Shown here one piece after another: positions 3,229-38,762 of a stretch of DNA of 64,000 nt. The first letter of the stretch is position 1. Every line of letters begins with the position of its first letter. The position numbers and the translations under genes were made by a program. Origin of the DNA: Escherichia phage slur16; sequence record NC_028248.1; one strand, given 5' to 3'. The notes beneath the pieces were generated by a model. It was not told the origin of the DNA. It ran no database searches and was given only the letters and a program-made list of their open reading frames with translations.

Positions 3229-3906
3229 TTAGTGCGGTCCACTTGTCTCGCCATCAGGGCAAGAGTGGGTATGACCTTTATATTCTGCATAGAATGAATC
3301 CAAATCCACGCCAGCAGCAGTTATAATTCTACCAGATGGGTCTATTGTAGCACCATTCATTCTGATATTCCCATCCACAGCAGCTCGCAAATTGGCAGCC
3401 CCGTTAGTGAAAGAAAACTCCCCGCTGCTGTCGCACCGTAATGTCCCACCAGGTGTTTGAAGCTCAAAATCGCCAGAAGGTGTCAGTTTAAAATAAACCC
3501 TATCATTCCATAACTCTACGTTATCAGGATCGATCTGTAAGGCGTTTGAGTCTGAATGAACAGAGGTGATTGCCCACCCCGGAAACAGGCCGTGAGTTTG
3601 TTGATCGTCGTTATTGTTTTCATTTCTCTCTGAAAACTGCAATCCTACAACATCTCCAGCCTTAATAGGGAGTGTTAACCTTGCCTTTCCGCTGTTTGCA
3701 GACATCACCTGAATTGGAACGTCATAGATAAGAGGGTATCTCTCCACATCTCCGTCATCAAACGTAGTTTCAGCTATTGGCTGCACGGCTGCAGAAGGTA
3801 TACTGTAGTCTACACTGACAACTCTGGCCCTGATACTGGTGTGGTAGTCCCTCATTATTTTTTCTATAAAAGATCTTACAGCAGCATCTTTCCTATTTAT
3901 TGCCAT
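3229..3906 (-). CDS. baseplate structural protein
   Basis: 225 aa ORF, stop/start abutting neighbours; position only. Confidence 0.4.
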   Translation of the reverse strand: MAINRKDAAVRSFIEKIMRDYHTSIRARVVSVDYSIPSAAVQPIAETTFDDGDVERYPLIYDVPIQVMSANSGKARLTLPIKAGDVVGLQFSERNENNNDDQQTHGLFPGWAITSVHSDSNALQIDPDNVELWNDRVYFKLTPSGDFELQTPGGTLRCDSSGEFSFTNGAANLRAAVDGNIRMNGATIDPSGRIITAAGVDLDSFYAEYKGHTHSCPDGETSGPH

Positions 3907-4910: not shown

Positions 4911-5290
4911 TATTCTAACCCTTGCTGTTCCTTGTAAAGATCAACCGGGGTGCCGTATACAAGTTGTAGCTCAGATCTCGCCCCAAGGTTATATCTTCCA
5001 ACCCTGCCCCAATATTGATCGTCTTTAAACGACAGCGCCATCAATCTACCTTTCGGTAAATCGTCTCTGTAATGCAGTCCGTCTAAAATATCTTGACAAG
5101 CTGTTACTTTTCTGGTTACTAAAGGGCTGTCACCTACCGGACCAAGAGATAACCACCAGGACTCATCCCTCTCATTCCATTGCATACGCATTTCATACGT
5201 CTCATTGTCTAAAACAACACGCATGGTTTGATCAGGAAAGCCGTCAATGTCCCACACAAAGGTGATTATGCACCAATCTTTAAGTTCCAT
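4910..5290 (-). CDS. small baseplate assembly protein (gpW-like size and position)
   Basis: 126 aa ORF coupled to downstream baseplate gene. Confidence 0.35.
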   Translation of the reverse strand: MELKDWCIITFVWDIDGFPDQTMRVVLDNETYEMRMQWNERDESWWLSLGPVGDSPLVTRKVTACQDILDGLHYRDDLPKGRLMALSFKDDQYWGRVGRYNLGARSELQLVYGTPVDLYKEQQGLE

Positions 5291-5302
5291 TACACGCTCC
5301 CC

Positions 5303-6214
5303 TTATTTTCCGTTAACTTTGTTGTAGTTTCCCTGCTCAGATGGGACTATGGTAGAAGGTCTTCCATATTCCTGATAATACCAATCCGCAGCAGATTGAG
5401 TAACACCGTTTTCATCCGTCCACATCATAGATTTGTAGGGCTGCCACTCTTCTGCGGCATTTGTTGATGCAGTGTCTGCAAATGCCCCTGTGTCCCTCTT
5501 GTTACCTACGTTACTGCCATTCTTACAGTCGTTGACAGCACCTTTTTGCTGGGTCTTGCCTACTTTCTTAGGGTTGCTGTATACAGTTGCATTAACAACC
5601 TTGTTCAAGTAGAATGTGCGGAACTCTGTAAGTTCTACATCAAACACCATCGCAGCACCTTCACCAACAGACTTGTTGGCAGAAAGGCTGGTTATGATGT
5701 AGTTCTCAAGGAGTCTCTCCTCGGTAACCAAAGAAACCAACTGGCGCTTATTAATGATCTCAGTCAAAGCCTCCAGTGCAGCGCCTGGTCGCATAGACGC
5801 TGCAGGGTTTTTAGAGTCAGTATTCCTGTCAATGTAGTTTTGCTCATAGATTATATGTGGTGATGTATTTACCCTACCAGTAAAAGAAAATACACCATCT
5901 TTAATTACAGCGTGGTCTGACAGGGTAGATTTATCTTCCACCGCAAACCCAGTCTTATCAACAGAATGTTTGAAAGAGTAATTCTCAACCTGATCGAAGA
6001 TGATGGCAAGATCGTTAGTAAAGTTTTTACCCTTCATCTCCGTATTGCGACCACCATAGTTAAGACCGCTGACAAACATAGTGTACTTTACATCGCTTTC
6101 AGTTTGCTGTTCTGCCTTTTCAGCCTTTGGAGATTTAACCTCTTGAGGCTTGTACAGGTCTTTTTCATCAACTATATTGCTTGGCATAACCTCTCCAGGA
6201 CACTCCGATACCAT
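5303..6214 (-). CDS. tail / baseplate hub protein
   Basis: 303 aa ORF immediately downstream of the tape measure gene. Confidence 0.4.
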   Translation of the reverse strand: MVSECPGEVMPSNIVDEKDLYKPQEVKSPKAEKAEQQTESDVKYTMFVSGLNYGGRNTEMKGKNFTNDLAIIFDQVENYSFKHSVDKTGFAVEDKSTLSDHAVIKDGVFSFTGRVNTSPHIIYEQNYIDRNTDSKNPAASMRPGAALEALTEIINKRQLVSLVTEERLLENYIITSLSANKSVGEGAAMVFDVELTEFRTFYLNKVVNATVYSNPKKVGKTQQKGAVNDCKNGSNVGNKRDTGAFADTASTNAAEEWQPYKSMMWTDENGVTQSAADWYYQEYGRPSTIVPSEQGNYNKVNGK

Positions 6215-6254
6215 CTAAATATTGTATCATAAAATAGCCGTTTTTACAACACCG

Positions 6255-6281
6255 ATAAAATAAAGGGGGCCGGAGCCCCCT
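6255..6281 (-). terminator. rho-independent terminator after tape measure gene
   Basis: Hairpin GGGGGC-CGGA-GCCCCC at 6265-6280; on the minus strand it is followed by a U-run (plus 6257-6264 AAAATAAA). Confidence 0.55.
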
Positions 6282-6293
6282 ATGTGCTGTTTA

Positions 6294-8630
6294 TTACCAA
6301 AGATCTGTTGACATAAAGTTAATATCTTTGTTATTCTCCCACTCAAGTTTTGCATCAAGTATTTTGCTAAACTCACCCTCATCTATTGAAATCGTGATTT
6401 TCCCATCACTAATCTCTAAAGGTAGCATTTCCATAGTTCTTAATTGAGAAGCAAAACCAGGGCCACCTGGCAACGGAAGAGTACCGCCCGGTAAGGTGTC
6501 CAAAGGATTAACAAATCCGTTACCTCCCGATATGATATCTTTGCGAATCATATCGCTGATAGTATCCAGCTGCTGATTTCTTTCACTTAGTGGGTTGTAA
6601 CGGTCATTAAATAATTCCCCGGCGCTTAGTATTGTACCGATAATACCCAGCTTACCGAGCAGACCAACTTTGCCACCAGGTGTCTTGAGGCCACCTCCCC
6701 CTTTTCCTGCCGGAGCGCCACCACCAGATCCTTCTGTAGTAGCGGCACCTGCTACTCCAGCTGCACCCCTTAGAGAGCTAAGGAATTTAAAGGTTTTTAC
6801 AAGCATAGATGCCATGACAAAACCTTTTGTTAGGGCGTTGACGACCAGCATGATGGCAGCAGCAAACCCTGCCCATTTAGCATAGCTAAAGGTGTCATGG
6901 AGCTCTTCAGAATATTCCTTCGTCTTAGCTGTTATGAACCCCCATTTAATCCCCCATTCAAGGAAAAACATGCGGATCTTGACTATAGTGTTGTTCAGTT
7001 CACCAACTACCCAGTTAAGGCCTCTCACAAACCCGCTAACAAAATCACCAGAGGCATCCCACACAAATTGCAGAGTCTCACCAGTGCGGATTAGTGTATA
7101 ATAGAACTCTGTTAGTTCGTCAGACCAACGGGTGAACAGTTTCTGACGAGTCAGTTCGATAAAGGTTTTCAGTCTGTTTTCTGCCAGCACGTTAGACTTC
7201 TGCATTCTTTCATAACCAGCTGCAGATGCCTCGTTCATGTACTTAGCCACATACTTCATGATCTTGGCTGTTTTAACCTCACCTTTCTTCATCATGTCCA
7301 TGAACTGATCCATGGAGAGTTCAGAAAGACCAAAAGCCTCTTTGGTGGCCTTGATAAAAGGTTCGTATGCACCAGGCAATGCTTCAGCAAGTTGTTGCTT
7401 CAGTTCTTCGGACATTACCTGTCCTTTCCCGAGCATCTGTTGGATTGCCATAATACCGCGCTGGTATTTTACCTCATCGGCACCATAAGCAGCAGCATAC
7501 TGGGAGTATGCAGAAAACAGCTCATGCACTTCCTGATTTGTCATCTGGTTTTTGGCGTTTACCGACATCTGGGCGTAACCTTGAAGACCAGATTTGAGAT
7601 CAAAACCAAGACGCATAGCCTCTTGCTGGACAAACGCAACCTCACTGTTGGCTTTGTTTGGATCTCCAGTAACAGCAGTAAGAGCAGCACTTGCCCCCTC
7701 CATCATGTGACCGGATCTGTTAACCGCAGCAAATCCAGAAAAAGCTGTATACGCAGCTGTTGCATTAATAACAGATCTACGTAAGTCTCTCATGGCATCG
7801 CCTAGTGTAAGCGTTTGGCTGGTGGCGCTTTTAAACCCAGACTGCAGCGCTGACAGGTGGGCGTTAAAGGTTGACTTCTTCATCTCCCCGCGAGCAAACC
7901 TGGACTCTAACTCTGAGTATCCTGGCAAGCTTCCACGGAATCCGGCCCCATACTTGGCAGAAAGTCTTATCGCGGAGTTGTAGAGGTGGGTTCTCCTTGC
8001 CTCACGATCCGACATAAGCCTATTATCCATACCAGCTTTACTGTCTCTTCTTAGCTGTCTATGATAACGATTCATAGCGGCTGTCTGAGCTTTCACAAGG
8101 TTAGGGTCGGAAGCCACACCACCCATATTAGGGTTACCGGGGATATATTTGAAAGATTTGGCATTAGCCAAAACTCTTGCCTTAGGTGCCTTATAACCAC
8201 CGTAAGACACTGGTGCAGATTTGGCAGCCTTTTTGGCCTCTTTAGCTTGCTGCTGGTAGAACTTACGCATCCTAGCCATTTCTGGATTTTTAGCGGTAAG
8301 ATTACCTACAGCTTGTTTACGTCTCGCATTCTCCCTACGTTCTATTGCAGCCCTTACTGCAGCCTCTTTCTTGGCCTGTGCTACGCTCTCTCTGTGCAGT
8401 TTAGCATTTGCCTGAGATTGCTGTCTGGCAACCCTCTGCATTGTCTGCTGGGTTTTAACAGCTACCGCCTGCCATCTACTCATTGGGTTGGCTGAGTTAA
8501 AATCCTCGCCCAGTTTCCTGAACTCCCTCCCAATACTGCGAATTTTCTCTACAGCTTTTTTGTAGGAGGAGTTCTCTATCTCAAAGCCAATCTTGTTGAC
8601 TGTTGTGGCAACTATTTTGTTTGTAGCCAT
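6294..8630 (-). CDS. tail tape measure protein
   Basis: 778 aa, longest ORF in the tail module; alpha-helical Ala/Lys/Gln-rich with Gly-rich segment (GGGAPAGKGGGGLKTPGGKVG); follows chaperone pair; GAGGAA RBS. Confidence 0.75.
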   Translation of the reverse strand: MATNKIVATTVNKIGFEIENSSYKKAVEKIRSIGREFRKLGEDFNSANPMSRWQAVAVKTQQTMQRVARQQSQANAKLHRESVAQAKKEAAVRAAIERRENARRKQAVGNLTAKNPEMARMRKFYQQQAKEAKKAAKSAPVSYGGYKAPKARVLANAKSFKYIPGNPNMGGVASDPNLVKAQTAAMNRYHRQLRRDSKAGMDNRLMSDREARRTHLYNSAIRLSAKYGAGFRGSLPGYSELESRFARGEMKKSTFNAHLSALQSGFKSATSQTLTLGDAMRDLRRSVINATAAYTAFSGFAAVNRSGHMMEGASAALTAVTGDPNKANSEVAFVQQEAMRLGFDLKSGLQGYAQMSVNAKNQMTNQEVHELFSAYSQYAAAYGADEVKYQRGIMAIQQMLGKGQVMSEELKQQLAEALPGAYEPFIKATKEAFGLSELSMDQFMDMMKKGEVKTAKIMKYVAKYMNEASAAGYERMQKSNVLAENRLKTFIELTRQKLFTRWSDELTEFYYTLIRTGETLQFVWDASGDFVSGFVRGLNWVVGELNNTIVKIRMFFLEWGIKWGFITAKTKEYSEELHDTFSYAKWAGFAAAIMLVVNALTKGFVMASMLVKTFKFLSSLRGAAGVAGAATTEGSGGGAPAGKGGGGLKTPGGKVGLLGKLGIIGTILSAGELFNDRYNPLSERNQQLDTISDMIRKDIISGGNGFVNPLDTLPGGTLPLPGGPGFASQLRTMEMLPLEISDGKITISIDEGEFSKILDAKLEWENNKDINFMSTDLW

Positions 8631-8684
8631 GGTTTCCTCATAATAAAAAGGGCCAGATCCCAGAAAAGGAATCCGGCCCTTAGA

Positions 8685-8933
8685 TTATCCTCTCCTGCGC
8701 TTAGCTTTCGCAGCAGCTGCGGCAGCCTTCTGCTCCCGCTCCATTTCCCTGTTTTGGACGGTATCTAGGAATTCTTCGATATCAAGATACTCACAGAGCT
8801 TCAGGAAATACGCCATATCTGCAAGATTTAGCGATTCAAAATTTTCCCCTTTGAAATTCTTGAGCACCCTGCACCAAAGAAAGTCGAACCAATTGAGTGA
8901 ACTGTTCTTGGCTGCCCACTCACTGGCCCTCAC
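8685..8933 (-). CDS. tail assembly chaperone, downstream ORF (possible frameshift partner)
   Basis: 82 aa ORF starting with GTG directly after the 157 aa chaperone ORF and before the tape measure gene. Confidence 0.35.
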   Translation of the reverse strand: MRASEWAAKNSSLNWFDFLWCRVLKNFKGENFESLNLADMAYFLKLCEYLDIEEFLDTVQNREMEREQKAAAAAAKAKRRRG

Positions 8934-19196: not shown

Positions 19197-20318
19197 TTAG
19201 ATAAAACGCTTGAACATAGAAGGTGATGAGATTGATGGAATCACACAAGGAAGTGCTACTTCCTCTTTCTCCAGGAAATTAATAGCAGAAGCTACACAGT
19301 CAGCCCAGTCGTCTTTTCTGTTAAATGTTGATCTTTCCCCGTTGAATTTTTCAAGTTCAGTCAGAAATGCTTCCAGAGTATCAGGATGGAAACTGGATTT
19401 TACAATCCTCACCATTCCTTGTTGGGCAAGATTGGCAAAAGGTGAGAACCTTGTCAGTTTAGATTTGTTGGAAGGCATTGGGTCTTCTTCAACCCTAAAC
19501 CCTTCGGCAAGCAAGGATCTGGAGGAGGTTAAGAACTCACTCTTACCTGCCTGACCGGGGTCCACAGAGAATACGATTATACAATCATCACCATCAAACT
19601 GCGCCTGTTTCCTGATGATCACATCTCGTTCACCAGCCTTTTTACAGAACTTGCCTTCTAGACCTGTGGAATACCTCCCGTCATCCACGTTCTCAGGACA
19701 ATAATCACCGGACAGGTAATAAAAGCCGTCGCTATCTTTACTTACCTTAACACTGGCGGTAAAGTCAGGAAATTTATTACCGGAAGTTCTCTCGGTTCCT
19801 GCCTTATCCCATGCCCTGCAAGATACTGATCCAAGGGGTACTCTATCGGCATCACGAAGGAAAGATCTTTGAAAATAGTTTGCGCCCTCAGGCTTTGCAA
19901 ACCAGTTACCATGAAGAAGCTGAGCTTTTTCCAGTTCCGGCAGACCTTCAAGGAAAGCAAGGTATTCTGGGTTGTCTCTTAAGCAAACAGGATTATCGAA
20001 TATTGTTGCGCCTATAAACGAGAATGACAACGGTCTTGGCTTGATCTCCACACCAAGTCCGTTAACCGTGGTGTATTTCTCTATCAACTCTTCTTTAGAG
20101 TCCCCCCAGATAAATTCACCGTCGCGTCGGATAAAATATCTTTTCTTACCGCATTTCTCCGGATCTGGATACCCTTCATCGTCCAACCACCACCTAACCA
20201 GTTTGGCAAGCATGTGTTCTGAATCGGGGTTACAGCTGATAACCATTCTTGATGGATACTTTGACTGAGATCGCAGACGAGACATCAGATAGTCTATCTG
20301 CTCCCATTCGAATTGTGT
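19197..20318 (-). CDS. terL: terminase large subunit, exon 2 (nuclease domain)
   Basis: Contains ISCNP coupling motif and acidic nuclease-type C-terminal domain; frame stays open upstream of the ORF-track ATG to ~20321 (TTQFEWEQIDYLMSRL...); 3' splice site approximate. Confidence 0.75.
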   Translation of the reverse strand, partial: TQFEWEQIDYLMSRLRSQSKYPSRMVISCNPDSEHMLAKLVRWWLDDEGYPDPEKCGKKRYFIRRDGEFIWGDSKEELIEKYTTVNGLGVEIKPRPLSFSFIGATIFDNPVCLRDNPEYLAFLEGLPELEKAQLLHGNWFAKPEGANYFQRSFLRDADRVPLGSVSCRAWDKAGTERTSGNKFPDFTASVKVSKDSDGFYYLSGDYCPENVDDGRYSTGLEGKFCKKAGERDVIIRKQAQFDGDDCIIVFSVDPGQAGKSEFLTSSRSLLAEGFRVEEDPMPSNKSKLTRFSPFANLAQQGMVRIVKSSFHPDTLEAFLTELEKFNGERSTFNRKDDWADCVASAINFLEKEEVALPCVIPSISSPSMFKRFI

Positions 20319-20637
20319 CGTTTATGTTCGGGCAAGGTCGCTAGTCTTGCCCCGCCATTTTCAGGCAGCTGCATGTCTCCATGCAGACCAGACTATATCT
20401 TATAAGCGACAACAACCGCTTATCCTCCCGTTTCGAATCGCTTGATTCTACGTCTTTCGACTAGTCGTTGAACGTTCATCCTCTCGGATGCTTCGCTGCG
20501 GATTATCTAAATTAACACACTGTTACCATACCTTCGATCTCTCTTCGAAGCCTCTATCATGTTACCATGACAGGTTGGTGGTATTAATAGTAAAGATTTC
20601 CCCGCAATTAGGGAGGTTTTACGAGAGCTACAAATTA
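20319..20637 (-). mobile_element. group I self-splicing intron (ORF-less) in terL
   Basis: Minus-sense conserved elements in order: P AAUUGCGGGGAA (20609-20598), Q AAUCCGCAGC (20504-20495), R GUUCAACGACUAGUC (20473-20459), S AAGAUAUAGUCUGG (20401-20388); no ORF; splits Walker ATPase from nuclease domain. Confidence 0.8.
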
Positions 20638-21063
20638 ACCCTCATCGAAGCAAACCATGGTGTACTCAAGCCCTTGATGGTTAAGCTTATCTTGTACATA
20701 CTCCATGTGGCAGTATTTTACAACAGCTCCCTTTTTGCTTCTATCCCACTTGCCAGTGTTCGGATCAAACCGTGGAAAAATGAACTTATGATCCTTCTCT
20801 CTGAACTTTGGCTTAATGTTTTCAGGCAGATCACTATAAATAGCTACCGCTTTAGGCCATAGTCCACCCTCACCTTCCAACTGCGGGGTTGTTCTTCGGA
20901 ACATAACCACAGAGCTGTGGGGGTCATCAATAATTTTAAGTGGCATCAATTGCAAGAGGAACGACTTGCCAGACCCTGCGGCACCGCCGATTACCAAAAT
21001 ATCTGCATCGTTTTCGAGGATCATCTTCTGCTTTTCAGAACACGGTCCGTAAATCTTAGACAT
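20638..21063 (-). CDS. terL: terminase large subunit, exon 1 (ATPase domain)
   Basis: Walker A GGAAGSGKS and Walker B-like VCFDE; ORF-track stop at 20635 lies in intron sequence. Confidence 0.8.
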
Positions 21064-22166: not shown

Positions 22167-22243
22167 TGGTCTCCACGGAGTGATTCGAACACTCGACCTC
22201 CTGATCCCAAATCAGGCGCTCTACCAAGCTGAGCTACGCGGAG
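22167..22243 (-). tRNA. tRNA-Pro (anticodon UGG)
   Basis: Cloverleaf with C1:G72, anticodon loop UUUGGGA, T-arm GAGUG-UUCGAAU-CACUC, CCA encoded. Confidence 0.85.
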
Positions 22244-22254
22244 TATTTATTATT

Positions 22255-22329
22255 TGGTGGCCCTGGGTGGAATTGAACCACCGTCTGGCGATTATGAGTC
22301 GCTTGCTTGAACCTTCCAGCTACAGGGCC
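22255..22329 (-). tRNA. tRNA-Met (anticodon CAU; elongator, initiator or Ile-lysidine type not resolved)
   Basis: Acceptor GGCCCUG/CAGGGCC, anticodon loop CUCAUAA, T-arm GGUGG-UUCAAUU-CCACC, CCA encoded. Confidence 0.8.
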
Positions 22330-22330
22330 A

Positions 22331-22406
22331 TGGTGCTGATGGCAGGACTTGAACCTGCAACCTATTGATTACAAATCAATTGCACTACCAATTGTGCTAC
22401 ATCAGC
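22331..22406 (-). tRNA. tRNA-Thr (anticodon UGU)
   Basis: Acceptor GCUGAUG/CAUCAGC, anticodon stem AUUGA/UCAAU with loop UUUGUAA, T-arm GCAGG-UUCAAGU-CCUGC, CCA encoded. Confidence 0.85.
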
Positions 22407-22412
22407 AAAAAA

Positions 22413-22511
22413 GGTGCTAGGTGATGGAATCGAACCACCTATGTATTCAACGACTACCTCGTCTATTTTCAGGATTAAAAATCCTCGCCCTTGCCAAAGG
22501 GCTTACCTAGC
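22413..22511 (-). tRNA. aberrant tRNA-like gene (possible pseudo-tRNA; Lys-UUU-like anticodon loop but oversized variable region)
   Basis: Perfect 7 bp acceptor GCUAGGU/ACCUAGC, D-arm GCCC-UUUGGCAA-GGGC and T-arm GGUGG-UUCGAUU-CCAUC, but ~47 nt between D- and T-arms; only CC encoded at 3' end. Confidence 0.3.
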
Positions 22512-22609
22512 TCAGTATGTTGACCATGTTGCTAGTCGGCGATGACGACTGTAACATTTGATAATCCGGTTCTGCTTCCGGCTTTCGCTTAATTACAAGG
22601 TCAACAATA

Positions 22610-22700
22610 TGGCTGAGGGTAATGGAATCGAACCATCATCGAGTCATCCTCAACGGGACGGTTTTCAAGACCGCTTGAGCACCATTGCTCCCTACCCTCA
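22610..22700 (-). tRNA. tRNA-Ser (anticodon UGA), type II with long variable arm
   Basis: Anticodon arm GCGGUCUUGAAAACCGU nearly identical to E. coli tRNA-Ser(UGA); T-arm GAUGG-UUCGAUU-CCAUU; discriminator G; CCA encoded; position 1 is U. Confidence 0.8.
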
Positions 22701-22814
22701 TTTATAAACAATACTGATAATGACACTGATTTTCGAGCAGTTAGTGACTAGTATAAACGACGATAAATATCAATGCCATTATCTGTATGATTTATGCATT
22801 TAAAACTATAAATT

Positions 22815-22901
22815 TGGTGGGGAGTGGTGGAGTCGAACCACCCGAGTCGTAATGACAATAGATTTACAGTCTACACCGCTACCTCTACGGGATAACTCCC
22901 C
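22815..22901 (-). tRNA. tRNA-Tyr (anticodon GUA), type II
   Basis: Acceptor GGGGAGU/ACUCCCC; anticodon region AGACUGUAAAUCU as in E. coli tRNA-Tyr; long variable arm; T-arm GGUGG-UUCGACU-CCACC; CCA encoded. Confidence 0.85.
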
Positions 22902-22905
22902 AATT

Positions 22906-22980
22906 TGGCACCCCGTACTGGACTCGAACCAGTGTCAACGGCTTAGAAGGCCGCTGCTTTATCCACTAAGCTAACAGGGC
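22906..22980 (-). tRNA. tRNA-Arg (anticodon UCU)
   Basis: D-arm GCUU-AGUGGAUA-AAGC, anticodon stem GCGGC/GCCGU with loop CUUCUAA, T-arm ACUGG-UUCGAGU-CCAGU, CCA encoded. Confidence 0.8.
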
Positions 22981-25920: not shown

Positions 25921-26475
25921 TTACTCCACGCTGTCAATAGCAAGACTCATTGCAATACGGTATGCCTCTTCTAATGGTAAGAGTCTCCCCCACACATCCC
26001 AACCGACATCAAACTGCCTGCCAAACAACTGCTGTGTGGTTCCGTGAGCATGACCGAACAGTTGGACCGATCCGTGAGGCTTTCTGTTCCACTTTGCAAA
26101 CTGGTAATGGCTCATACAGATCAAATTCTTGTTGTGGCGAAGCTCGTAATAATCTACAACCTCATGACCGAACTCTTTCATAATTCTGACAGTCGTCCTT
26201 GTGTCATGGTTACCACGAACAAGAATAATATGTCCGTTCAACATATTTAGAACATCTGGGAGCAATTTGTTAATATTCTTATCATTAGTGCACGCAATAT
26301 CTCCTAAGTGAAACACAGTGTCTGCAGGTGACACAACAGAGTTCCACTTGGTGATGATCCCCGCATTCATACTGTCAAGATTGTGATCATACTGAGATCT
26401 GTGTTTTTGACATGAGTCAAACTCCATGACCCGCTGGTGGAGAAAGTGTGTGTCGCTTGTTACAAAGTATTTCAT
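25921..26475 (-). CDS. calcineurin-like metallophosphoesterase (candidate RNA-repair phosphatase)
   Basis: Motifs DTHF, GDIACTND, GNHD, GHAHG; start set to ATG 26475 (GAGGAA RBS) just after the kinase stop. Confidence 0.65.
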   Translation of the reverse strand: MKYFVTSDTHFLHQRVMEFDSCQKHRSQYDHNLDSMNAGIITKWNSVVSPADTVFHLGDIACTNDKNINKLLPDVLNMLNGHIILVRGNHDTRTTVRIMKEFGHEVVDYYELRHNKNLICMSHYQFAKWNRKPHGSVQLFGHAHGTTQQLFGRQFDVGWDVWGRLLPLEEAYRIAMSLAIDSVE

Positions 26476-26482
26476 ACATTCC

Positions 26483-26950
26483 TCATTTAAGTTTAATGCA
26501 GTTTTTAAGCTGGCGTTCCATACGATCCACAACCCTGTCTGGAACATCATGAATGCTTTTACTACCATGGCGGTTTTCAACCACGATTACGGTATAACTA
26601 TACCTATGACTGATCGCCATGTCAATATATTCTTGCACATATTTTTCTTTTGTAAATGTATTACTTACCACGATACGGTCGTATCCCATACGCATCATAT
26701 CTTCTACGTTATCTTTGCACCATTTTGCTGCAAGTGTTACTTTACTTGCATCCCAGTTGTAATTTCCATCATCGTCGTACCAGAACATGTCGTTCTCAAA
26801 ATGTGGATACAGACCTTCTAAAGATAGCGCACTTGCCAGTGTTGATTTGCCAGACCCTGGTAGACCACGCACGATATATAGCATTTTAGACATAGTAATC
26901 CTCCGTTTTAATTTCAACGATAGTATACCTAACTGTTTTGTTAATTTCAA
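26483..26950 (-). CDS. polynucleotide 5'-kinase, P-loop (T4 Pnk kinase-domain-like)
   Basis: Walker A GLPGSGKST near N-terminus; ~150 aa kinase-only size; adjacent to phosphoesterase and RNA ligase. Confidence 0.6.
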   Translation of the reverse strand: MKLTKQLGILSLKLKRRITMSKMLYIVRGLPGSGKSTLASALSLEGLYPHFENDMFWYDDDGNYNWDASKVTLAAKWCKDNVEDMMRMGYDRIVVSNTFTKEKYVQEYIDMAISHRYSYTVIVVENRHGSKSIHDVPDRVVDRMERQLKNCIKLK

Positions 26951-27011
26951 GTGTTGACACTAGGTTATTTGTGTGGCAGGATAGACTGACAAAATGACAA
27001 ATGAGGAACGT

Positions 27012-27929
27012 ATGATGAAGTATTTTAATGCAGACGACCTAGTTGACAAAGGTCTTGTAACCAGCAGATATCACCCAGACCTTGGGTTAAAGATCTATAA
27101 ATATGCCAGAAAAGTATTCTACAACAACTTATGGCATTTGTCTCCTCGATTACTGGAGTGCCGAGGCATTGTTGTCGGTAATGAAGGAAATGTTGTGGCA
27201 TGGCCCTTTACAAAAGTGTTTAACTTGGGAGAAAACTCCACCAACCTGCCTGACAATAAGCTTGTGACGGCGGTAGAGAAAAAGAACGGATTCCTTGGTG
27301 TGGTGTCATCTCATAAAGGTGAACTATTGTTCTCAACAACCGGGTCTCTTGATTCTCCATATTGTAACCTTGCAAAGGAAACCATCCAGGAGCAATGTGG
27401 TAATTTAGATCTTATCAAGAAGGTTATGGGCAATGAAAATATGACATTCATGTTTGAAATTTGTCACCCCTCAGATCCGCATATTGTTCAGGAAGATCAT
27501 GGCGCATATTTGATAGGTTGCAGATATAATGATTCTGGAATAATGCTACCAGAAGCAGCTTTAGATGGGATTGCCAAATACCTTGGTGCAAAACGTCCTC
27601 ACACTGTGCGTGAAATTCCGTTCAGTTATGCAAAAGAATTAGCTGCAGAAACAAGAGGTGAAGGGTATATGATTCGTAAGCCTTACTACCCTTATGATCT
27701 GCAGCTGAAGATTAAGTCTCCATACTATCTGGCACGGAAGGCCGTAATGAGGGGTAAAGCTTGGAAGATTTGGGATGATGATATCTTTAAACGTGTTGAC
27801 GAAGAGTTTTACGGCATGGTAAACTTCATTCGTAACAACTACACAGAGGATGTATGGAACTGCCTCCTGGAGCAGGAACGCCGTGAGATACTCGATTACT
27901 ATTTCCACAACGAGAACTATATGCAATGA
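27012..27929 (+). CDS. rnlA: RNA ligase 1 (T4 RnlA-like)
   Basis: LLECRGIVV, KVFNLGEN and motif I KKNG match T4 Rnl1 ALECRGIMF, KFFNLNEN, KEDG; start at ATG 27012 with GAGGA RBS (ORF-track ATG 26994 also possible). Confidence 0.75.
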   Translation: MMKYFNADDLVDKGLVTSRYHPDLGLKIYKYARKVFYNNLWHLSPRLLECRGIVVGNEGNVVAWPFTKVFNLGENSTNLPDNKLVTAVEKKNGFLGVVSSHKGELLFSTTGSLDSPYCNLAKETIQEQCGNLDLIKKVMGNENMTFMFEICHPSDPHIVQEDHGAYLIGCRYNDSGIMLPEAALDGIAKYLGAKRPHTVREIPFSYAKELAAETRGEGYMIRKPYYPYDLQLKIKSPYYLARKAVMRGKAWKIWDDDIFKRVDEEFYGMVNFIRNNYTEDVWNCLLEQERREILDYYFHNENYMQ

Positions 27930-28276
27930 AGAAGTTGATTGTGTGGCTAGATGACTTGAGAGATCCGTCAAAGTACGGGCTCCAAGACGCTGTTTGGCTA
28001 AAGAATTCCTCCGAGTTTATAGATTTTATTAACGATAATAGAAAGCTCTACAGACGCGTTTCTGAGTGGCATATGGACAACGACCTTGGAGAGGTATTCG
28101 AAGGGTACGATTGCCTATCTATGTTGGAGGAAAAATTTGTATTTGGTAAGCCTCCTGTAGTTGACAACGTGAAGATTTTCGTGCATACTTCTAACCCATC
28201 AGCGGCTCGTAAATTCATGCTTGCAGCTGACTCGTTTAAAAAGTTTGGAATAGAGATTAAACAAAACATCTACTGA
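27926..28276 (+). CDS. hypothetical protein
   Basis: 116 aa ORF, ATGA-coupled to upstream gene, immediately upstream of Sir2 gene. Confidence 0.45.
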   Translation: MKKLIVWLDDLRDPSKYGLQDAVWLKNSSEFIDFINDNRKLYRRVSEWHMDNDLGEVFEGYDCLSMLEEKFVFGKPPVVDNVKIFVHTSNPSAARKFMLAADSFKKFGIEIKQNIY

Positions 28277-32558: not shown

Positions 32559-33023
32559 GTGGAAGACGGACGTTTAATGAGGTCTGAACGCAGGCTTATT
32601 GTGCAACTGATCCCAGAAACAGCTTGGTATAATAACCTCCGAAACGCTGTGAAGAAGAGTGAGTGGGATAAGATCCGTAAGAAGTGCTACAGAGAGGCAA
32701 ACTACACTTGCGAGGTGTGCGGCGGTAAAGGCAGCAAACATCCAGTGGAGTGTCATGAACTTTACACTTTCGAAGAGGGAGTGATCCGGCTTGTCGGACT
32801 GATAGCGTTGTGCCCAGATTGTCACACATCGGTACATCCTGGATTAGCAAATATCCGTGGAAAGTATGCTCAGGCAGTTAATCAGTTGGCTAAGGTGAAT
32901 AAGATCACCAGAGGTATGGCAGAGGCGTATTACCGAGACTGCTTTGCAGAGTGGCGCGAGCTTAGTAAAGTTCCAGAATGGAAGACTGACTTTTCGTGGA
33001 TAGAGGGTTACCTTGATGGCTAA
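32559..33023 (+). CDS. HNH-type zinc-finger nuclease (free-standing)
   Basis: CEVCGG...HPVECHELY...CPDCHTSVH cysteine/histidine pattern; GTG start with GGGGGA RBS. Confidence 0.45.
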   Translation: MEDGRLMRSERRLIVQLIPETAWYNNLRNAVKKSEWDKIRKKCYREANYTCEVCGGKGSKHPVECHELYTFEEGVIRLVGLIALCPDCHTSVHPGLANIRGKYAQAVNQLAKVNKITRGMAEAYYRDCFAEWRELSKVPEWKTDFSWIEGYLDG

Positions 33024-33306
33024 GAGATCTGTAAAAGAGAAATTCGATAAGACAGCTTTTGTATTCGATACACCTCTGGACGATATCATCAGGGGTATGC
33101 AAGCCTTGTATCGGAAGGCTGAATCTGAGCAGTTGTCTGAATCAGAACTTTACTGGCTTGGTTGGTGGGAGTTAAACCTGCCTAAAGCTGAAAGCTCTTG
33201 TCTGAGAACTGTTAAAACGTGCGCCCAAGAAAACGCTGCACTTGGAATCTACCACAAAAGGAAAAGATCAACAAAAAGCTCTCCAAGAAAGACTAAAAAG
33301 TCTTGA
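33013..33306 (+). CDS. hypothetical protein with basic C-terminal tail
   Basis: 97 aa; C-terminus HKRKRSTKSSPRKTKKS. Confidence 0.4.
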   Translation: MMAKRSVKEKFDKTAFVFDTPLDDIIRGMQALYRKAESEQLSESELYWLGWWELNLPKAESSCLRTVKTCAQENAALGIYHKRKRSTKSSPRKTKKS

Positions 33307-33332
33307 CAAAAGTGTTATTAATCTGATATTAT
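33303..33332 (+). promoter_or_regulatory. sigma70-like promoter
   Basis: TTGACA (33303-33308), 18 nt spacer, TATTAT (33327-33332); AGGAG RBS and ATG 33366 downstream. Confidence 0.55.
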
Positions 33333-33365
33333 CGGTCAGATATCTATAAACTAGGAGAACTAGGT

Positions 33366-33674
33366 ATGCTTAAAATTTTTATTGTTGAAGATAAAGATAT
33401 TGTCCAGTTGTATGCAAACGAGAATCATAAAGGTATGATTCTGAAGAAGGCAAGCAACCTTCATGAAAACACAATTCAACCTGGCGATGTAATTAAGATC
33501 TGTGGTTATATGATACCAGACTCCTTGATGAAAATAACCCACCACTGGGGGTCTAATCCGTTCCTTTTTGAAAAGTATTGGGATGTTGAGTCACTTATTG
33601 CAGAGAGTGATGATGCATTCCATTACAGCATCCAACCATCTTGCAGAATAACTAACAGGAGGGTCTTTGAGTAG
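33366..33674 (+). CDS. hypothetical protein
   Basis: 102 aa ORF behind promoter and RBS. Confidence 0.45.
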   Translation: MLKIFIVEDKDIVQLYANENHKGMILKKASNLHENTIQPGDVIKICGYMIPDSLMKITHHWGSNPFLFEKYWDVESLIAESDDAFHYSIQPSCRITNRRVFE

Positions 33675-34806
33675 AGAATATCCACTTATTGAGTCCATAG
33701 ATTGTCTGGCTGATCTTCTTGAACCTGACGCTATAGTTTATTATGACTTCGATCAGGTTGCATATCAAGCTGCAGCAAGTTGTGAAAAAAGGACAATTGA
33801 GGTAACACACAAAGCCTCCGGACGTAAGAAGATGTTTAAAACACGAACAGAGTTCTGGGGGCGGCAGAAGAACACCGTTGGTGGTTGGCTAAAAGCTGAG
33901 AATACCAACCGTGAAGCCGCATGTAAAAAGTCTGGTAAGGAGTTTATTCCGTGGACACGTGAAGATTTTGATGTCTTGGATATCCAAACACCTGACCCTG
34001 TAGAGAACTGCTTGCACACAATAAAATGTAAGGCAAATGCAGTTCTTAACTATCTTGGTATTCCGGAAGAGCGATGTGTCGGGGTGTTGGGAGGCACAGG
34101 TAACTTCAGACTAGATCTTCCAATGCCGGAAAGATACAAAGCCAACCGTAACAATACTCTTCGACCACTGCTGCTTGGAGATGCAAGACAGTATCTCCAA
34201 AAGCAGTATAATGCTCAAGTGATCAACGGTATCGAGGCTGATGACTGGTTAGCTATCCAGCAATTTGAAGGTTGGAACCACTACCAAAAAACAGGTAAGT
34301 TCAACAAGTTTATTATCTCTATTGATAAGGACCAAAGAACACTACCGGGGCTTGTGTTCGATCCCATGCGAAACGATAAGGGAGATTTTGTAAGGGAAAC
34401 CCCTATGCTGATCGATAACGGTATGGGGAACATCTTCATGAAGCCTAATGGAGAGGTTGGTGGTTACGGAATGCTGTTCTTCGGATACCAAATGCTGTGT
34501 GGTGACTCTGCTGACAACATCAAGCCGTATCAAGGACTTATCGGTAAGGGTAAGTTCGGAGATGCCTCAGCATTCTACCTACTGTCTCAGTGCAGCACTC
34601 CAAAGGAGATGTGGGTGGCTATTATTGATCAGTACAAGAAGTGGTTCCCGAAAGGTGTTGTTAAGTATACTGACTTCAATGGTATTGATCGTAGAATCTC
34701 CGTAGGTCAATGGATGAGTATAATTTTTGACTGTTTGTATATGAAGCGAACATTCAATGATCAAACAAAACTTGTTAACGTTCTTAGAAATGTTGGAGCA
34801 ATTTGA
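33667..34806 (+). CDS. 5'-3' exonuclease / flap endonuclease (T5 D15 / T4 RNase H family)
   Basis: Signature GIEADDWLA (FEN-family G-x-EADD metal site); 379 aa. Confidence 0.65.
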   Translation: MSREYPLIESIDCLADLLEPDAIVYYDFDQVAYQAAASCEKRTIEVTHKASGRKKMFKTRTEFWGRQKNTVGGWLKAENTNREAACKKSGKEFIPWTREDFDVLDIQTPDPVENCLHTIKCKANAVLNYLGIPEERCVGVLGGTGNFRLDLPMPERYKANRNNTLRPLLLGDARQYLQKQYNAQVINGIEADDWLAIQQFEGWNHYQKTGKFNKFIISIDKDQRTLPGLVFDPMRNDKGDFVRETPMLIDNGMGNIFMKPNGEVGGYGMLFFGYQMLCGDSADNIKPYQGLIGKGKFGDASAFYLLSQCSTPKEMWVAIIDQYKKWFPKGVVKYTDFNGIDRRISVGQWMSIIFDCLYMKRTFNDQTKLVNVLRNVGAI

Positions 34807-35138
34807 TGACTAAAAATTCTGTAGATAACGCAATTATGGAAGCTGTTTTTGAGGATGATCACACAACAGGGACACTTAAAACAAAAAATACATTCGTTGT
34901 TGCCACAGGTATGTGGCGGTTGTATGAAGATGACACCATTTCATACATCCTGTACACGGATGATTACGCAGATGACCGTGTATGGTCTGCTGTTTTAAAA
35001 GAGGATTGTGAGCTGATTGAGGGCGAGCGGTTATGCATGTTCACCAGTGTGGAAACAGATGTTAAGCTTTGCTCTCTCGTATTGTTCAAAGATAAGGCTT
35101 ATGCTCCTGATGAAGGAGAGGAGGATGAGGAAGCATGA
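34803..35138 (+). CDS. hypothetical acidic protein
   Basis: 111 aa; ATGA coupling both sides; C-terminus EGEEDEEA. Confidence 0.4.
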   Translation: MMTKNSVDNAIMEAVFEDDHTTGTLKTKNTFVVATGMWRLYEDDTISYILYTDDYADDRVWSAVLKEDCELIEGERLCMFTSVETDVKLCSLVLFKDKAYAPDEGEEDEEA

Positions 35139-35764
35139 GAGAGCGTCTATTATCCATAGACCAGTCGTTGACACACACAGCTTGCGTTGTATGGGACGAT
35201 GGAAAGCCTGTTCATAAGGTTGTGTTACGAACTCAAAGCTCATCTGCAAAAGAGAAGAAACCAGGGACGGTTTCTTTTGCAACAGCTGCTGAGCGTATTG
35301 ACTGGATCTGCAAACAGGTCAGATATTATATCCACACGCACGGCGTTGACACTGTAGTTATGGAAGGGCTTTCCTTTGGATCACGCGGGGATGCCACACG
35401 TGAACTGGCTGGGTTGTTTTACGGTCTTGAAGTTATGCTTTGGGATGCCTTAGCTGATTGTGAAAATGACGGCCTGTTTAAGGTCCACACAGTGACACCA
35501 ACAACTGCCAAAAAGTTTGCTCGTGGTCATCTTCCTGAGGAACTTGCTTTCGAGGAGAAGAAAAAGCTTGACAAAAAGACAGGTAAAGAGCATACTGTGA
35601 AGAAACCTGTTACGATGGATAAAAAGTTGATGGTTAAGGCCTGCGAAGTATCTGAACCTGGGTTCCTAGATGGGATCAATTTGGTACAAGGTAAGGCCGA
35701 TCTCGCAGATGCTTATTGGATAGGCAGGGCGCATCTGGAGGGATTATCGCAAAGCGTAAAATAA
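35135..35764 (+). CDS. RuvC-like Holliday junction resolvase
   Basis: LSIDQSLTHTACVV (Asp motif), VVMEGLSFG (Glu), DLADAYWIGRAHL (C-terminal Asp pair). Confidence 0.5.
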   Translation: MRERLLSIDQSLTHTACVVWDDGKPVHKVVLRTQSSSAKEKKPGTVSFATAAERIDWICKQVRYYIHTHGVDTVVMEGLSFGSRGDATRELAGLFYGLEVMLWDALADCENDGLFKVHTVTPTTAKKFARGHLPEELAFEEKKKLDKKTGKEHTVKKPVTMDKKLMVKACEVSEPGFLDGINLVQGKADLADAYWIGRAHLEGLSQSVK

Positions 35765-36321
35765 GAAAGAAAGCTGTCAAAGCCCCCGTTCATAACGGGT
35801 GGTTAAAAGATTCTAAGGACATAGCCAACTTTCGAAAAGAATTGTCAGAGGAGCAGGATGGTCTTGATCCTATCTTGTGCGAGCCACTTCGTAAGCCTTG
35901 TTTGGATCATGACCATCTGACTGGTCGTTGCAGGGGTGTTTTGTCCCAATGCACTAATACCTTTGAGGGGTATGTGCTTAAATACTGGATGAAATACTGT
36001 AACGAGTATACAGATTGCAGTTTATCAGAGGCGTTGCGCCGGATGGCTGACTATTTGGAGAAAGACTACAGCGACTTCCCGCTCCACAAAAACTACAGAG
36101 ATGATATGACAAAGTTCTTGAGGAGATGCTCTAAAGCTACGATCATTGCACGAGCAGAATCAGATCTCAATCTTGTCATTAATCCGGAGTGCACCAAGCA
36201 TGAGGCTATTGAGTTCTACATGCAGGAGTTTATAAAGAAAACTGAGGAGAGAGATTTCTATGGGGATGAAAAAGGTATTCAATCCTTGCGATTCAGTTCT
36301 GATCAGGATGAAATACCGTAA
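35716..36321 (+). CDS. His-Me finger endonuclease (T4 endonuclease VII-like)
   Basis: CLDHDHLTGRCRGVLSQCTN matches endonuclease VII core. Confidence 0.6.
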   Translation: MDRQGASGGIIAKRKIRKKAVKAPVHNGWLKDSKDIANFRKELSEEQDGLDPILCEPLRKPCLDHDHLTGRCRGVLSQCTNTFEGYVLKYWMKYCNEYTDCSLSEALRRMADYLEKDYSDFPLHKNYRDDMTKFLRRCSKATIIARAESDLNLVINPECTKHEAIEFYMQEFIKKTEERDFYGDEKGIQSLRFSSDQDEIP

Positions 36322-36481
36322 CTGGAAAGGTGTTGTTGCAGATCGCTGCGTTACTGAGCCTAATTTATGGTTTGGCTCTACAGAGTATCATAAAGAAGAG
36401 CAGTGGTTGATGCGTGCCTTCGATGTAGACAAGGGCGAATATCGTGACTTCGCTTTAAAAGACATTCTTCAGTTTTACTAA
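36260..36481 (+). CDS. hypothetical protein
   Basis: 73 aa ORF; start may be the ATG at 36266. Confidence 0.35.
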   Translation: MGMKKVFNPCDSVLIRMKYRNWKGVVADRCVTEPNLWFGSTEYHKEEQWLMRAFDVDKGEYRDFALKDILQFY

Positions 36482-36493
36482 GGAATCTTAACG

Positions 36494-37477
36494 ATGATGA
36501 CAAAGTTAACTCTTGAGCAAATTTTAACACTAAAGCAACAGGGATACACTAATAGACAAATTGCTCGTGAATTTTTAGGCCGTGAGTCACGTGAGAGCTG
36601 GATCCGACTACAGCTTAAACGTGCACAAGAGAATATGTCAGAGATTGTAGGAGAAGCAACGGAGCGCTTCCTTGAAGAGCACAAAGGTGCTAAAGTTTGG
36701 GTGTATGATACAGAGACATCTCCAACAAACGGCTGGTTCTTTGGGCACTATAAGACCAACATTCAAACCTGCGGTATTGAAATTATGCCCTACATGCTAA
36801 CTTTCGCAGGTAAGTGGTTAGACAGTCCTAGTGTGGTTGACTGCGCTCTTCCTGATTACAAAATGTGGGATGAGGATATTCACAATGATCTCGAATTGAT
36901 TCAGGATTTGTGGTATTATCTGGATAAATGTGATGTCGCAGTAGCCCACAATTCAGGTTTTGACTGTGGGTGGGCCAACCAACGATTTGCATTTCACGGA
37001 TTGCCTCCAACAAGCCCCTACAAAGAGGTTGACACCCTTAAAATGATCAAGAAGGCATTCCGTTTGAATGCAAACACTTTGGAGTATGCATGCAAATACT
37101 TCCAACTTGCCCGACAGAAACTGATTGACCACACATTTGAAATGTGGATCAAGTGTGTTCACGGTGATCTTGAGGCGTTTAAACAGATGCGGGAGTACAA
37201 TGTTGGCGATATCCTATCTCTGGAAGGCCTGTATTTGCTGGCTCGCCCGTTTGCTAAGCAGCACCCCAACATGTCATTGTACTACCAGGATGAGGAGCCA
37301 AAAGTTCGTTGCCCACGCTGTGGTGGAGAACACCTTCACGAGGAAGAAGCTTTGGCGTATACTCAACTGAGTGCATTTAAAACATACCGCTGCGAAGGTT
37401 GTGGATCTGTTGTTCGTGACCGTAACAACATCCGCACCAGAGAAGAAATGAAAAATACCCTGATTCAGATAATCTAA
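36494..37477 (+). CDS. DnaQ-like 3'-5' exonuclease with C-terminal zinc ribbon
   Basis: Exo I VWVYDTETS, Exo II AHNSGFDCGW; C-terminal CPRCGG...CEGCGS. Confidence 0.6.
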   Translation: MMTKLTLEQILTLKQQGYTNRQIAREFLGRESRESWIRLQLKRAQENMSEIVGEATERFLEEHKGAKVWVYDTETSPTNGWFFGHYKTNIQTCGIEIMPYMLTFAGKWLDSPSVVDCALPDYKMWDEDIHNDLELIQDLWYYLDKCDVAVAHNSGFDCGWANQRFAFHGLPPTSPYKEVDTLKMIKKAFRLNANTLEYACKYFQLARQKLIDHTFEMWIKCVHGDLEAFKQMREYNVGDILSLEGLYLLARPFAKQHPNMSLYYQDEEPKVRCPRCGGEHLHEEEALAYTQLSAFKTYRCEGCGSVVRDRNNIRTREEMKNTLIQII

Positions 37478-37492
37478 CAATTATAGGGAGGC

Positions 37493-38341
37493 TTGCGCCT
37501 CCCTTTTCCTTTTGGAGGCACTTTGAGCAAGAAAGAGTCCAACGACAAATACTACACAAACCCTGAGTATGCAGAATATCTTGTTGGTAAAGTAAAAGAT
37601 AAGTATGGGAATTGTGCATACGTTGAGCCTTCTGCTGGAAGGGGTTCTTTTTCAAAACTATTTTCAGAGATACTGTCGTACGATTTAGTACCAGATCCTG
37701 AATTTGAAGGACCAACACCGTGCATTCAGGCAAACTTCTTGGAGGTGCATCCCAAGGCAGATGTCTTCATAGGTAACCCACCATTTGGCAAGAATTCATC
37801 CTTAGCTTGCAAATTCTTTAACCATTGTGCATCATTGCTAGAGCTTGGAGGGGCTATAGCCTTCATCTTGCCACGGACATTTGAAAAAATATTTTTTGCA
37901 AACAAACTGGACATGTCGATGCACCTTGTCTACAGCGAAAGGTGCCCTAAGAATTCGTTTTTACTTAATGGCAAACCTTATGACGTGCCATGTGTTTTCC
38001 AAATTTGGGAGAAAAAGGCGTGCAATAGGGATCCTGTAGAGATTGGAGAGAATAAGTTATTTTCTTTTAGCACACCAGATGACTACGACTTCTGTGTAAG
38101 ACGTGTTGGGTATAATGCTGGAAAAGTATTGGGGGATGATGACCCAAAATCTGAAGAATCAACATATTTCATAAAATCTTTAGTTAACGGTGTTGACAGA
38201 GTGTTTGCTGAATGCTATTCTTCTTTTCAAGAAGAAGCAGGTAAGACTGCTGGAATGAAGAGTATAGGTAAGAAAGAACTACAATACATTTTGGAGACCA
38301 GGTATGATCAAAAGCATAGACTTGACCAAAGAACTTACTGA
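37493..38341 (+). CDS. DNA N6-adenine methyltransferase
   Basis: Motif I VEPSAGRG and motif IV NPPFG; non-ATG start in ORF track, start uncertain. Confidence 0.55.
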   Translation: MRLPFPFGGTLSKKESNDKYYTNPEYAEYLVGKVKDKYGNCAYVEPSAGRGSFSKLFSEILSYDLVPDPEFEGPTPCIQANFLEVHPKADVFIGNPPFGKNSSLACKFFNHCASLLELGGAIAFILPRTFEKIFFANKLDMSMHLVYSERCPKNSFLLNGKPYDVPCVFQIWEKKACNRDPVEIGENKLFSFSTPDDYDFCVRRVGYNAGKVLGDDDPKSEESTYFIKSLVNGVDRVFAECYSSFQEEAGKTAGMKSIGKKELQYILETRYDQKHRLDQRTY

Positions 38342-38762
38342 TGCAAAAGCTTTTGGTGAGACAGCGGTACAAAGAGGACAGGCGATGGGACTGGCACTAC
38401 CTTTTGTCTTAAAAGAGCACTTTACAGATTTTCAACTTATCAAAGGTGATAAGGGAATGCTTATCCTGGAGCATAAGTTGAGTAAGAAACGCTATAAAGT
38501 CGTTTTTAATTCTAAAGCTCCAACAAAACTGGGATTCAGAACTTACAATCTTAACCCATCCTACACTAAGGGTGTTGGAAGGGTAGAACAACAGCATTTC
38601 AGTGCCAGAGCTTCTTTAGCCCCTTTGATGCTAAATTTCTCAGGGGTGGCTTTAGGATACCTTGATAAGAAAAGGGTTCTTCATGTTCGTTTCACAGACT
38701 TTGTAACGCTTTTAGCTAACAACGAGGTTGATGAGAAGGGACGTGTAAAAACAAACTTCTAA
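38304..38762 (+). CDS. hypothetical protein
   Basis: 152 aa ORF. Confidence 0.4.
   Translation: MIKSIDLTKELTDAKAFGETAVQRGQAMGLALPFVLKEHFTDFQLIKGDKGMLILEHKLSKKRYKVVFNSKAPTKLGFRTYNLNPSYTKGVGRVEQQHFSARASLAPLMLNFSGVALGYLDKKRVLHVRFTDFVTLLANNEVDEKGRVKTNF

Follow-up and report, generated by a model that had tools for sequence, protein, structure and literature searches.

A conserved nuclease block of Escherichia phage slur16 and other Vequintavirus phages pairs a RuvC-like resolvase with an endonuclease VII homologue

Escherichia phage slur16 (sequence record NC_028248.1) carries a dense block of nuclease genes, which we analyzed within a 64,000-nucleotide stretch of the phage DNA, referred to here as the window. 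A preliminary description of this DNA had placed four nuclease open reading frames (ORFs) within about 4 kb, and we located all four of them on the + strand, together with the motifs that had been quoted for them:

33667..34806, + strand: FEN-superfamily 5'-3' exonuclease (FEN), 379 aa; phrog_107, E=5.4e-71
35135..35764, + strand: RuvC-like Holliday junction resolvase, 209 aa; phrog_159, E=2e-40
35716..36321, + strand: endonuclease VII (EndoVII) homologue, 201 aa; PF02945; phrog_423, E=6e-37
36494..37477, + strand: DEDDy 3'-5' exonuclease (Exo), 327 aa, with an N-terminal helix-turn-helix (HTH) and a C-terminal zinc ribbon; phrog_403, E=1.4e-110

The GIEADD motif occupies residues 188-193 of FEN (nt 34228-34245) and the CLDHDH motif residues 62-67 of EndoVII (nt 35899-35916), where CRG and CTNTFEG then follow, while the zinc ribbon of Exo consists of CPRCG and CEGCG at residues 273-277 and 300-304. 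Phages slur12 (LN881735) and WalterGehring/Bas51 (MZ501111) are 100% identical to positions 33000-38400 of the window, and 119 records of rV5-like phages of the genus Vequintavirus are at least 90% identical to the same positions. The window belongs to a Vequintavirus (rV5-like) phage, a myovirus, and also encodes the portal, large terminase, major capsid, sheath and tape measure proteins that would be expected of one. Its relatives are much-sequenced coliphages and candidates for therapeutic use. The block itself is already known, in that PHROG has a named family for each of the four enzymes and some GenBank records annotate them. Correct labels are found in several records ('RuvC-like Holliday junction resolvase', 'packaging and recombination endonuclease', 'putative 5'-exonuclease' and 'DnaQ-like 3'-5' exonuclease'), and most Vequintavirus records still name the RuvC-like gene 'hypothetical protein' or 'RNaseH'.

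The assignment of the RuvC-like protein is carried by its phrog_159 membership, its predicted structure and its catalytic residues. The AlphaFold model has a mean predicted local distance difference test score (pLDDT) of 91.9, and when it was compared with the Protein Data Bank (PDB) using Foldseek, the 13 best matches were all RuvC proteins, including T. thermophilus RuvC (4ep4; E=6.7e-8, template modelling (TM) score 0.72) and the RuvC of Lactococcus phage bIL67 (4ktw). TM scores normalised to the target range from 0.70 to 0.77, and identity in the alignments is 13-18%. The acidic tetrad expected of a RuvC is present as D9, E77, D189 and D192, the last three of which are invariant in 23 homologues; D9 is found in more than 90% of the same homologues, the exception being an N-terminally truncated sequence. 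In the profile alignment to the PDB, D9 and E77 fall on motifs of RuvC. A search of the PDB with the single sequence returned one chance-level match, to a non-RuvC protein (E=1.2). The possibility that this ORF might be reassigned to a non-nuclease fold was checked by structure, and the protein models as RuvC. It could still be argued that the ORF encodes a protein with an RNase H fold but a different role, or a resolvase copy that has degenerated, given that it has no Pfam match, that its profile reaches RuvC in the PDB only marginally (E=0.24) and that several records name it 'hypothetical protein' or 'RNaseH'. This explanation, however, has to contend with a confident model whose best structural matches are all RuvC, with the conservation of the tetrad, with a ratio of nonsynonymous to synonymous substitution rates (dN/dS) of 0.035 and with the presence of PF02075 in distant homologues (P0030 and P0032, the only ones that carry it). 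We consider it very improbable.

Likewise, the His-Me nuclease that had been described as EndoVII-like from its CLDHDH, RG and CTN motifs proved to be just that. The protein matches PF02945 with 31.6 bits (cut-off 23.6; E=1.5e-7), and T4 gp49 is matched in the PDB (1e7d, E=3.5e-4), with phmmer aligning residues 61-167 to T4 residues 37-147. The active-site residues D64, H65, H67, N81 and E84 are invariant in 25-29 homologues. In the predicted structure (pLDDT 85.5), the only significant PDB matches found by Foldseek are to T4 EndoVII, over 148-152 columns. Judging from this model, the protein is a full-length gp49 homologue that includes the C-terminal helical dimerisation domain, and not a mere His-Me domain. 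The resemblance does not extend to the structural Cys4 zinc site of T4 gp49 (C23, C26, C58 and C61), since the rV5-like clade has no conserved cysteine at any of these positions. The corresponding CxxC...CxxC pattern is present in T4 and Mosigvirus gp49 (a T-even database record, L054) but not in clade members at those positions. The absence of T4-type zinc-binding cysteines from the EndoVII of the rV5-like clade is a small new detail, and the model shows that the fold can do without the T4 zinc site. An alternative Cys4 site formed by C55, C62, C72 and C79 of the window protein was considered and rejected, because two of these cysteines are absent from relatives at 76% identity.

The assignment of FEN as a 5'-3' exonuclease, made earlier from the GIEADD motif, was borne out by its phrog_107 membership and its invariant carboxylates, with weaker profile matches to solved 5' nucleases. 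In an alignment of 12 homologues drawn from related loci (A4), nine acidic residues are invariant (D27, D29, E190, D192, D193, D220, D222, D280 and D283), as are the motifs YK.NR, GIEADD, DKD and GD..DN. While a single-sequence search of the PDB with FEN gave no match, the profile built from the 12 homologues matched solely 5'-3' exonucleases, although weakly (9l56, E=4.8e-4; T5 D15, E about 0.1). For Exo, the description of a DnaQ-like 3'-5' exonuclease with a zinc ribbon holds for the exonuclease, the ribbon and the superfamily, but not for the subtype. Its Exo I (DxE), Exo II (NxxFD) and Exo III motifs are all present, and D72, E74, H152, N153, F156, D157, Y235 and D239 are invariant. The third motif has the form Yx3D (Y235-x3-D239), making Exo a DEDDy enzyme and not a DEDDh enzyme like DnaQ, so that 'DnaQ-like' is valid at the superfamily level only. 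The Exo profile matches the epsilon subunit of DNA polymerase III in the PDB (E=3e-6), and the RNase_T Pfam score of 21.8 bits lies below the cut-off of 24. Among relatives, the N-terminal HTH is strongly conserved, and the CxxC...CxxC ribbon has been lost in some. According to the phrog_403 label, this family would provide the phage DNA polymerase with its proofreading subunit; the Exo gene lies approximately 50 kb from the T7-like polymerase gene of the phage.

Both junction enzymes are widely conserved among related phages. We found them in all 119 of the 119 close relatives, whose records cover at least 80% of the block region. When IMG/VR was scanned with the RuvC alignment, 45 loci were retrieved, and the order (HNH-)FEN-(orf111-)RuvC-EndoVII-orf73-Exo is kept in about 25 of these, down to 36-40% RuvC identity. 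The RuvC and EndoVII genes are adjacent or one ORF apart in about 25 diverged loci from IMG/VR, and likewise in phages of Aeromonas and Vibrio. The order FEN-RuvC-EndoVII-Exo is conserved across Vequintavirinae and recurs, with extra genes in between, in these Aeromonas and Vibrio phages, down to about 30% identity. The pair has FEN and ThyX genes on its flanks in phiA009, an Aeromonas phage (Plateaulakevirus), and in Vibrio phage 496E54-1, where identity is about 30-35%. Compared with a relative (L003) at a dS of 0.6-0.8, dN/dS is 0.016 for FEN, 0.035 for RuvC, 0.075 for EndoVII and 0.017 for Exo, values that place both junction enzymes under strong purifying selection. This conserved distribution, together with the low dN/dS, indicates that RuvC and EndoVII are ancestral, fixed and constrained in the lineage.

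The four nuclease genes are accompanied by smaller ORFs and by predicted expression signals, and another nuclease gene adjoins the block upstream:

32559..33023, + strand: HNH endonuclease gene, 154 aa, with CEVCG, ECHE and CPDCH; phrog_5200, E=1.6e-72
33303..33332, + strand: predicted sigma-70 promoter-like site, TTGACA-18-TATTAT with an extended -10 TG, matching 11 of 12 consensus positions
33366..33674, + strand: orf102, first gene of the predicted unit; phrog_14449, E=2e-72, labelled 'transposase'
34803..35138, + strand: orf111, 111 aa; phrog_7583 (a family of unknown function), E=6e-57
36260..36481, + strand: orf73, a small conserved protein; phrog_3715, E=2.6e-26
37485..37504, with a T-run to 37513, + strand: predicted terminator-like hairpin, AGGGAGGC-TTGC-GCCTCCCT followed by the T-run

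The promoter-like site sits in the gap before orf102, and PhagePromoter predicts a promoter at the corresponding position in phage Gotham. The hairpin begins 8 nt past the Exo stop codon, has 8 pairs of which 6 are G-C, and is the best-scoring terminator-like site between positions 30000 and 39000; ARNold predicts a terminator at the corresponding place in Gotham. From these signals and the gene arrangement, orf102, FEN, orf111, RuvC, EndoVII, orf73 and Exo probably form one transcription unit, running from a promoter at about 33303 to a terminator at about 37485. Within this unit, no Pfam family reaches threshold for orf102, so we distrust the 'transposase' label of its PHROG family. Pfam gives no match for FEN, RuvC, orf111 or orf97. 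The orf111 product is very acidic (27 D/E versus 10 K/R among its 111 residues, with the C-terminal tail EGEEDEEA); it is kept between FEN and RuvC in the closer relatives only and may mimic DNA or regulate a nuclease. Wherever orf73 is detected, it lies directly 3' of EndoVII and before Exo, mostly adjoining Exo, with a gap in locus L015. It bears a weak likeness to SH3/WYL-like barrels (WYL_2, E=0.02, below threshold).

The HNH gene lies 5' of FEN in most related loci and has a dN/dS of 0.026 (versus L003). Phage WalterGehring labels it 'putative homing endonuclease', yet its position is kept across genera. On these comparisons it behaves as a core gene and not as a mobile one, and would be the fifth conserved nuclease of the region. 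A homing role for one of the nucleases, which had been raised in the preliminary description, would make the EndoVII-like or the HNH-type gene a selfish element that had invaded the replication module. Some homing endonucleases do contain PF02945 or HNH domains, rV5-like phages carry many homing endonucleases and introns, and the WalterGehring label points the same way. A homing gene is nonetheless hardly compatible with presence in 119 of 119 close relatives, with a position and gene order fixed across genera and with strong purifying selection, and the EndoVII protein matches the resolvase T4 gp49 over its full length, beyond the nuclease core. We exclude such a role, which of all the alternatives weighed here has the least to recommend it.

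The last 49 nt of the RuvC gene (35716-35764) also belong to the EndoVII gene, which is read there in the -1 frame, and this relative frame is identical in all 10 loci where the two genes abut. The annotated TTG start of EndoVII (35716) has no Shine-Dalgarno sequence, while a strong GGAGG at 35737-35741 precedes an in-frame ATT/ATC, so that the true start of EndoVII is uncertain. The overlap and the start context suggest, from the nucleotide sequence, either that translation of the two genes may be coupled or that a potentially toxic nuclease may be held to a weak, non-canonical start. A programmed -1 frameshift yielding a RuvC-EndoVII fusion was also considered, the RuvC stop context in the window being A_AAA_TAA; it was rejected because the nine other abutting loci have no slippery motif in common.

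Mislabelled records touch several of these genes. In phage APECc02 (NC_041869; L002, locus 3017-8763), several RefSeq product names appear to have been moved one gene downstream: orf111 bears the name 'putative exodeoxyribonuclease', orf97 'putative HNH endonuclease', a 57-aa ORF past the real EndoVII gene 'EndoVII packaging and recombination endonuclease', and the ORF past the methyltransferase 'DNA N6-adenine methyltransferase'. Separately, 20 'Campylobacter phage' records, with C. jejuni given as host, match E. coli rV5-like phages at 97-99.5% identity across the block, with a DNA identity of about 98.5% over the 5.4 kb, which suggests that they may be mislabelled or contaminating coliphage genomes.

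An ATP-dependent ligase gene lies upstream of the nuclease block, and ThyX and ribonucleotide reductase genes lie downstream. These belong to a + strand arm of replication and nucleotide-metabolism genes that includes RNA ligase, DNA ligase, endolysin, ThyX and ribonucleotide reductases. Given these neighbors, the block fits a replication and nucleotide-metabolism module. We think it probable that it represents the ordinary replication, recombination and repair nuclease operon of Vequintavirus, in which the tasks of the junction enzymes are split. We base this reading on the folds, catalytic residues, gene order, purifying selection and predicted operon signals described above, and infer from them the substrates, timing and task split. 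By analogy with T7 gp6 and T5 D15, FEN would remove RNA primers and flaps and resect 5' ends. The RuvC-like protein, as a dimer, would cut Holliday junctions arising from recombination-dependent replication, while EndoVII would act on a wider range of branched and mismatched DNA and, like T4 gp49, would debranch the concatemer for headful packaging. The DEDDy exonuclease would trim 3' ends or proofread.

The preliminary description had listed packaging as a different role that one of the two enzymes might have. Clearing branched DNA for packaging is, however, an established function of T4 EndoVII, cited as such in papers on Certrevirus CB7 and Septuagintavirus (PMC7344957, PMC11370258), and the label 'packaging and recombination endonuclease' is already in use for these genes. 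For the related phage CB7, circular permutation as in T4 has been reported (PMC7344957), which suggests headful packaging. The view that carrying both enzymes is unusual is fair in part: their co-occurrence is atypical, RuvC and EndoVII having been described as 'nearly complementary' in a survey of 224 jumbo phages (PMC7824862), but within this lineage the pair is ancestral and fixed. We found no discussion of RuvC in rV5-like phages in the literature, and papers on Vequintavirinae mention only EndoVII.

Several points weigh against an operon with divided junction-enzyme tasks. The division of labor between RuvC and EndoVII is drawn purely from analogy, and the two genes share a predicted operon, which gives no sign of separate expression times. 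The promoter and terminator are consensus matches and thus predictions only, and promoter-like matches in the region (21, versus 16.7 ± 3.9 in shuffled sequence) are not above expectation. Neither PF02075 nor any other Pfam family is matched by the RuvC-like protein at E<=0.1, nor does FEN match any Pfam family, 5_3_exonuc included, at that threshold; both proteins are divergent. The assignments of FEN and RuvC consequently depend on PHROG profiles, on PDB profile matches and, for RuvC, on a predicted structure. Finally, an EndoVII that lacks the T4 zinc site may differ from gp49 in stability and dimer architecture.

Because both active sites are intact and both genes lie in one predicted operon with a 49-nt overlap, it could be supposed that the two junction nucleases are redundant, acting on the same branched intermediates with one as a backup copy and no real specialisation. 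Phage resolvases are also typically promiscuous on branched DNA, according to a study of bIL67 RuvC (PMC3864405). Compact phage genomes, however, usually lose redundant genes, and here both persist down to about 30% identity with dN/dS values of 0.035 and 0.075; moreover, in jumbo phages one family mostly replaces the other instead of coexisting with it (PMC7824862). We consider redundancy rather unlikely.

Another explanation is that one nuclease, or FEN together with one of the endonucleases, serves mainly to degrade host DNA or to counter host defence. In phage T7, gp3 and gp6 break down the host chromosome, and the circumstantial evidence here is that the operon contains a T7 gp6-like exonuclease, adjoins nucleotide-salvage genes (ThyX and the ribonucleotide reductases) and holds the acidic orf111, a conceivable DNA mimic or nuclease regulator, between FEN and RuvC. 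An anti-defence role had been suggested earlier for one of the nucleases; nothing in the analysis points to it directly, and no anti-defence family was matched. The full-length gp49 likeness of EndoVII and the canonical tetrad of RuvC point instead to junction resolution, leaving this explanation improbable.

Beyond the probable operon with divided tasks, we offer more tentatively the broader possibility that RuvC and a zinc-less EndoVII have been retained as a pair across a supergroup of myoviruses of about 115-150 kb, comprising Vequintavirinae, Plateaulakevirus and their Vibrio relatives. The two might be kept because they are non-redundant, with RuvC acting, for example, on true Holliday junctions and EndoVII on concatemer branches and mismatches for packaging, or they might be kept as a coupled pair whose genes would be translationally linked through the conserved -1-frame overlap. 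If this is true, these phages would be a natural system for asking why one resolvase suffices in most phages. In either case, the lineage is a clear exception to the usual pattern of one resolvase per phage, and with E. coli K-12 hosts and the BASEL phages it provides a tractable system for studying the division of labor between RuvC-type and EndoVII-type enzymes. The RuvC-like gene can be renamed with confidence in Vequintavirus records. Beyond annotation, the importance of the block is slight, as it is a standard replication, recombination and repair module.

The remainder of the replication machinery lies elsewhere in the phage genome, where a primase/helicase and a T7-like family A polymerase are encoded. 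In WalterGehring, the polymerase gene (L050, 20665-24284, outside the window) is split by an intron with a homing endonuclease inside. Its product matches T7 DNA polymerase over residues 633-795 (E=6e-15); Pfam and PDB searches locate only this T7-like polymerase domain, and the N-terminal 600 or so residues have no Pfam match. Within the window, a group I intron at 20369-20647 (- strand; Rfam RF00028, 84 bits) splits the large terminase gene into exon ORFs at 19197-20285 and 20635-21063 (- strand). This intron has no homing endonuclease ORF, while TerL of WalterGehring is annotated as two pieces joined across a homing endonuclease. For rV5, terminase-gene introns have already been reported. 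Six tRNA genes are clustered at 22170-22980 (- strand; Rfam RF00005, two near threshold) beside the spanin and terminase genes. At about 26000-28000 the GC skew changes from negative to positive, where the genes switch from the - strand (structural) to the + strand (replication and nucleotide metabolism).

Each of the four enzymes can be compared with a well-known counterpart. FEN shares with the PIN-like 5' nucleases T7 gp6 and T5 D15 the carboxylate clusters and the motifs YK.NR, G(I/V)EADD, DKD and GD..DNI, which align to the 5'-nuclease core of the structures. At 379 aa it is longer, and about 60 aa are inserted past the first acidic motif; the likeness to T7 gp6 in particular is a presumed one. 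Exo shares the Exo I, II and III motifs with the epsilon subunit of DNA polymerase III (DnaQ) and with the proofreading domains of family A polymerases; it differs from DnaQ in being a DEDDy enzyme, with an HTH fused to its N-terminus and a zinc ribbon to its C-terminus.

The RuvC-like protein shares the RNase H-like fold and acidic tetrad of bacterial RuvC (T. thermophilus 4ep4/4ld0 and E. coli 1hjr) and of bIL67 RuvC (4ktw), with D9, E77, D189 and D192 as the counterparts of D7, E66, D138 and D141 in the E. coli enzyme. Among the phage genes surveyed, neither RuvA nor RuvB is annotated, and bIL67 RuvC is likewise a stand-alone phage enzyme. Compared with known RuvC proteins, the window protein is about 50 residues longer and falls below Pfam detection. 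Its lysine-rich, lineage-specific insertions lie at about residues 36-50 and 131-160, with a predicted beta-hairpin at residues 139-158.

As for EndoVII, its model shares with T4 gp49 (1en7, 1e7l and 2qnc) both the beta-beta-alpha-Me core and the C-terminal helical domain, with TM scores of 0.62-0.69 when normalised to the T4 protein. The catalytic residues D40, H41, H43, N62 and E65 of gp49 correspond to D64, H65, H67, N81 and E84 of the window protein. The two proteins are about 24% identical, and the window protein differs from gp49 in having an extra K/R-rich N-terminal tail of about 30 aa, a basic extension that is often present in the EndoVII proteins of the rV5-like clade.

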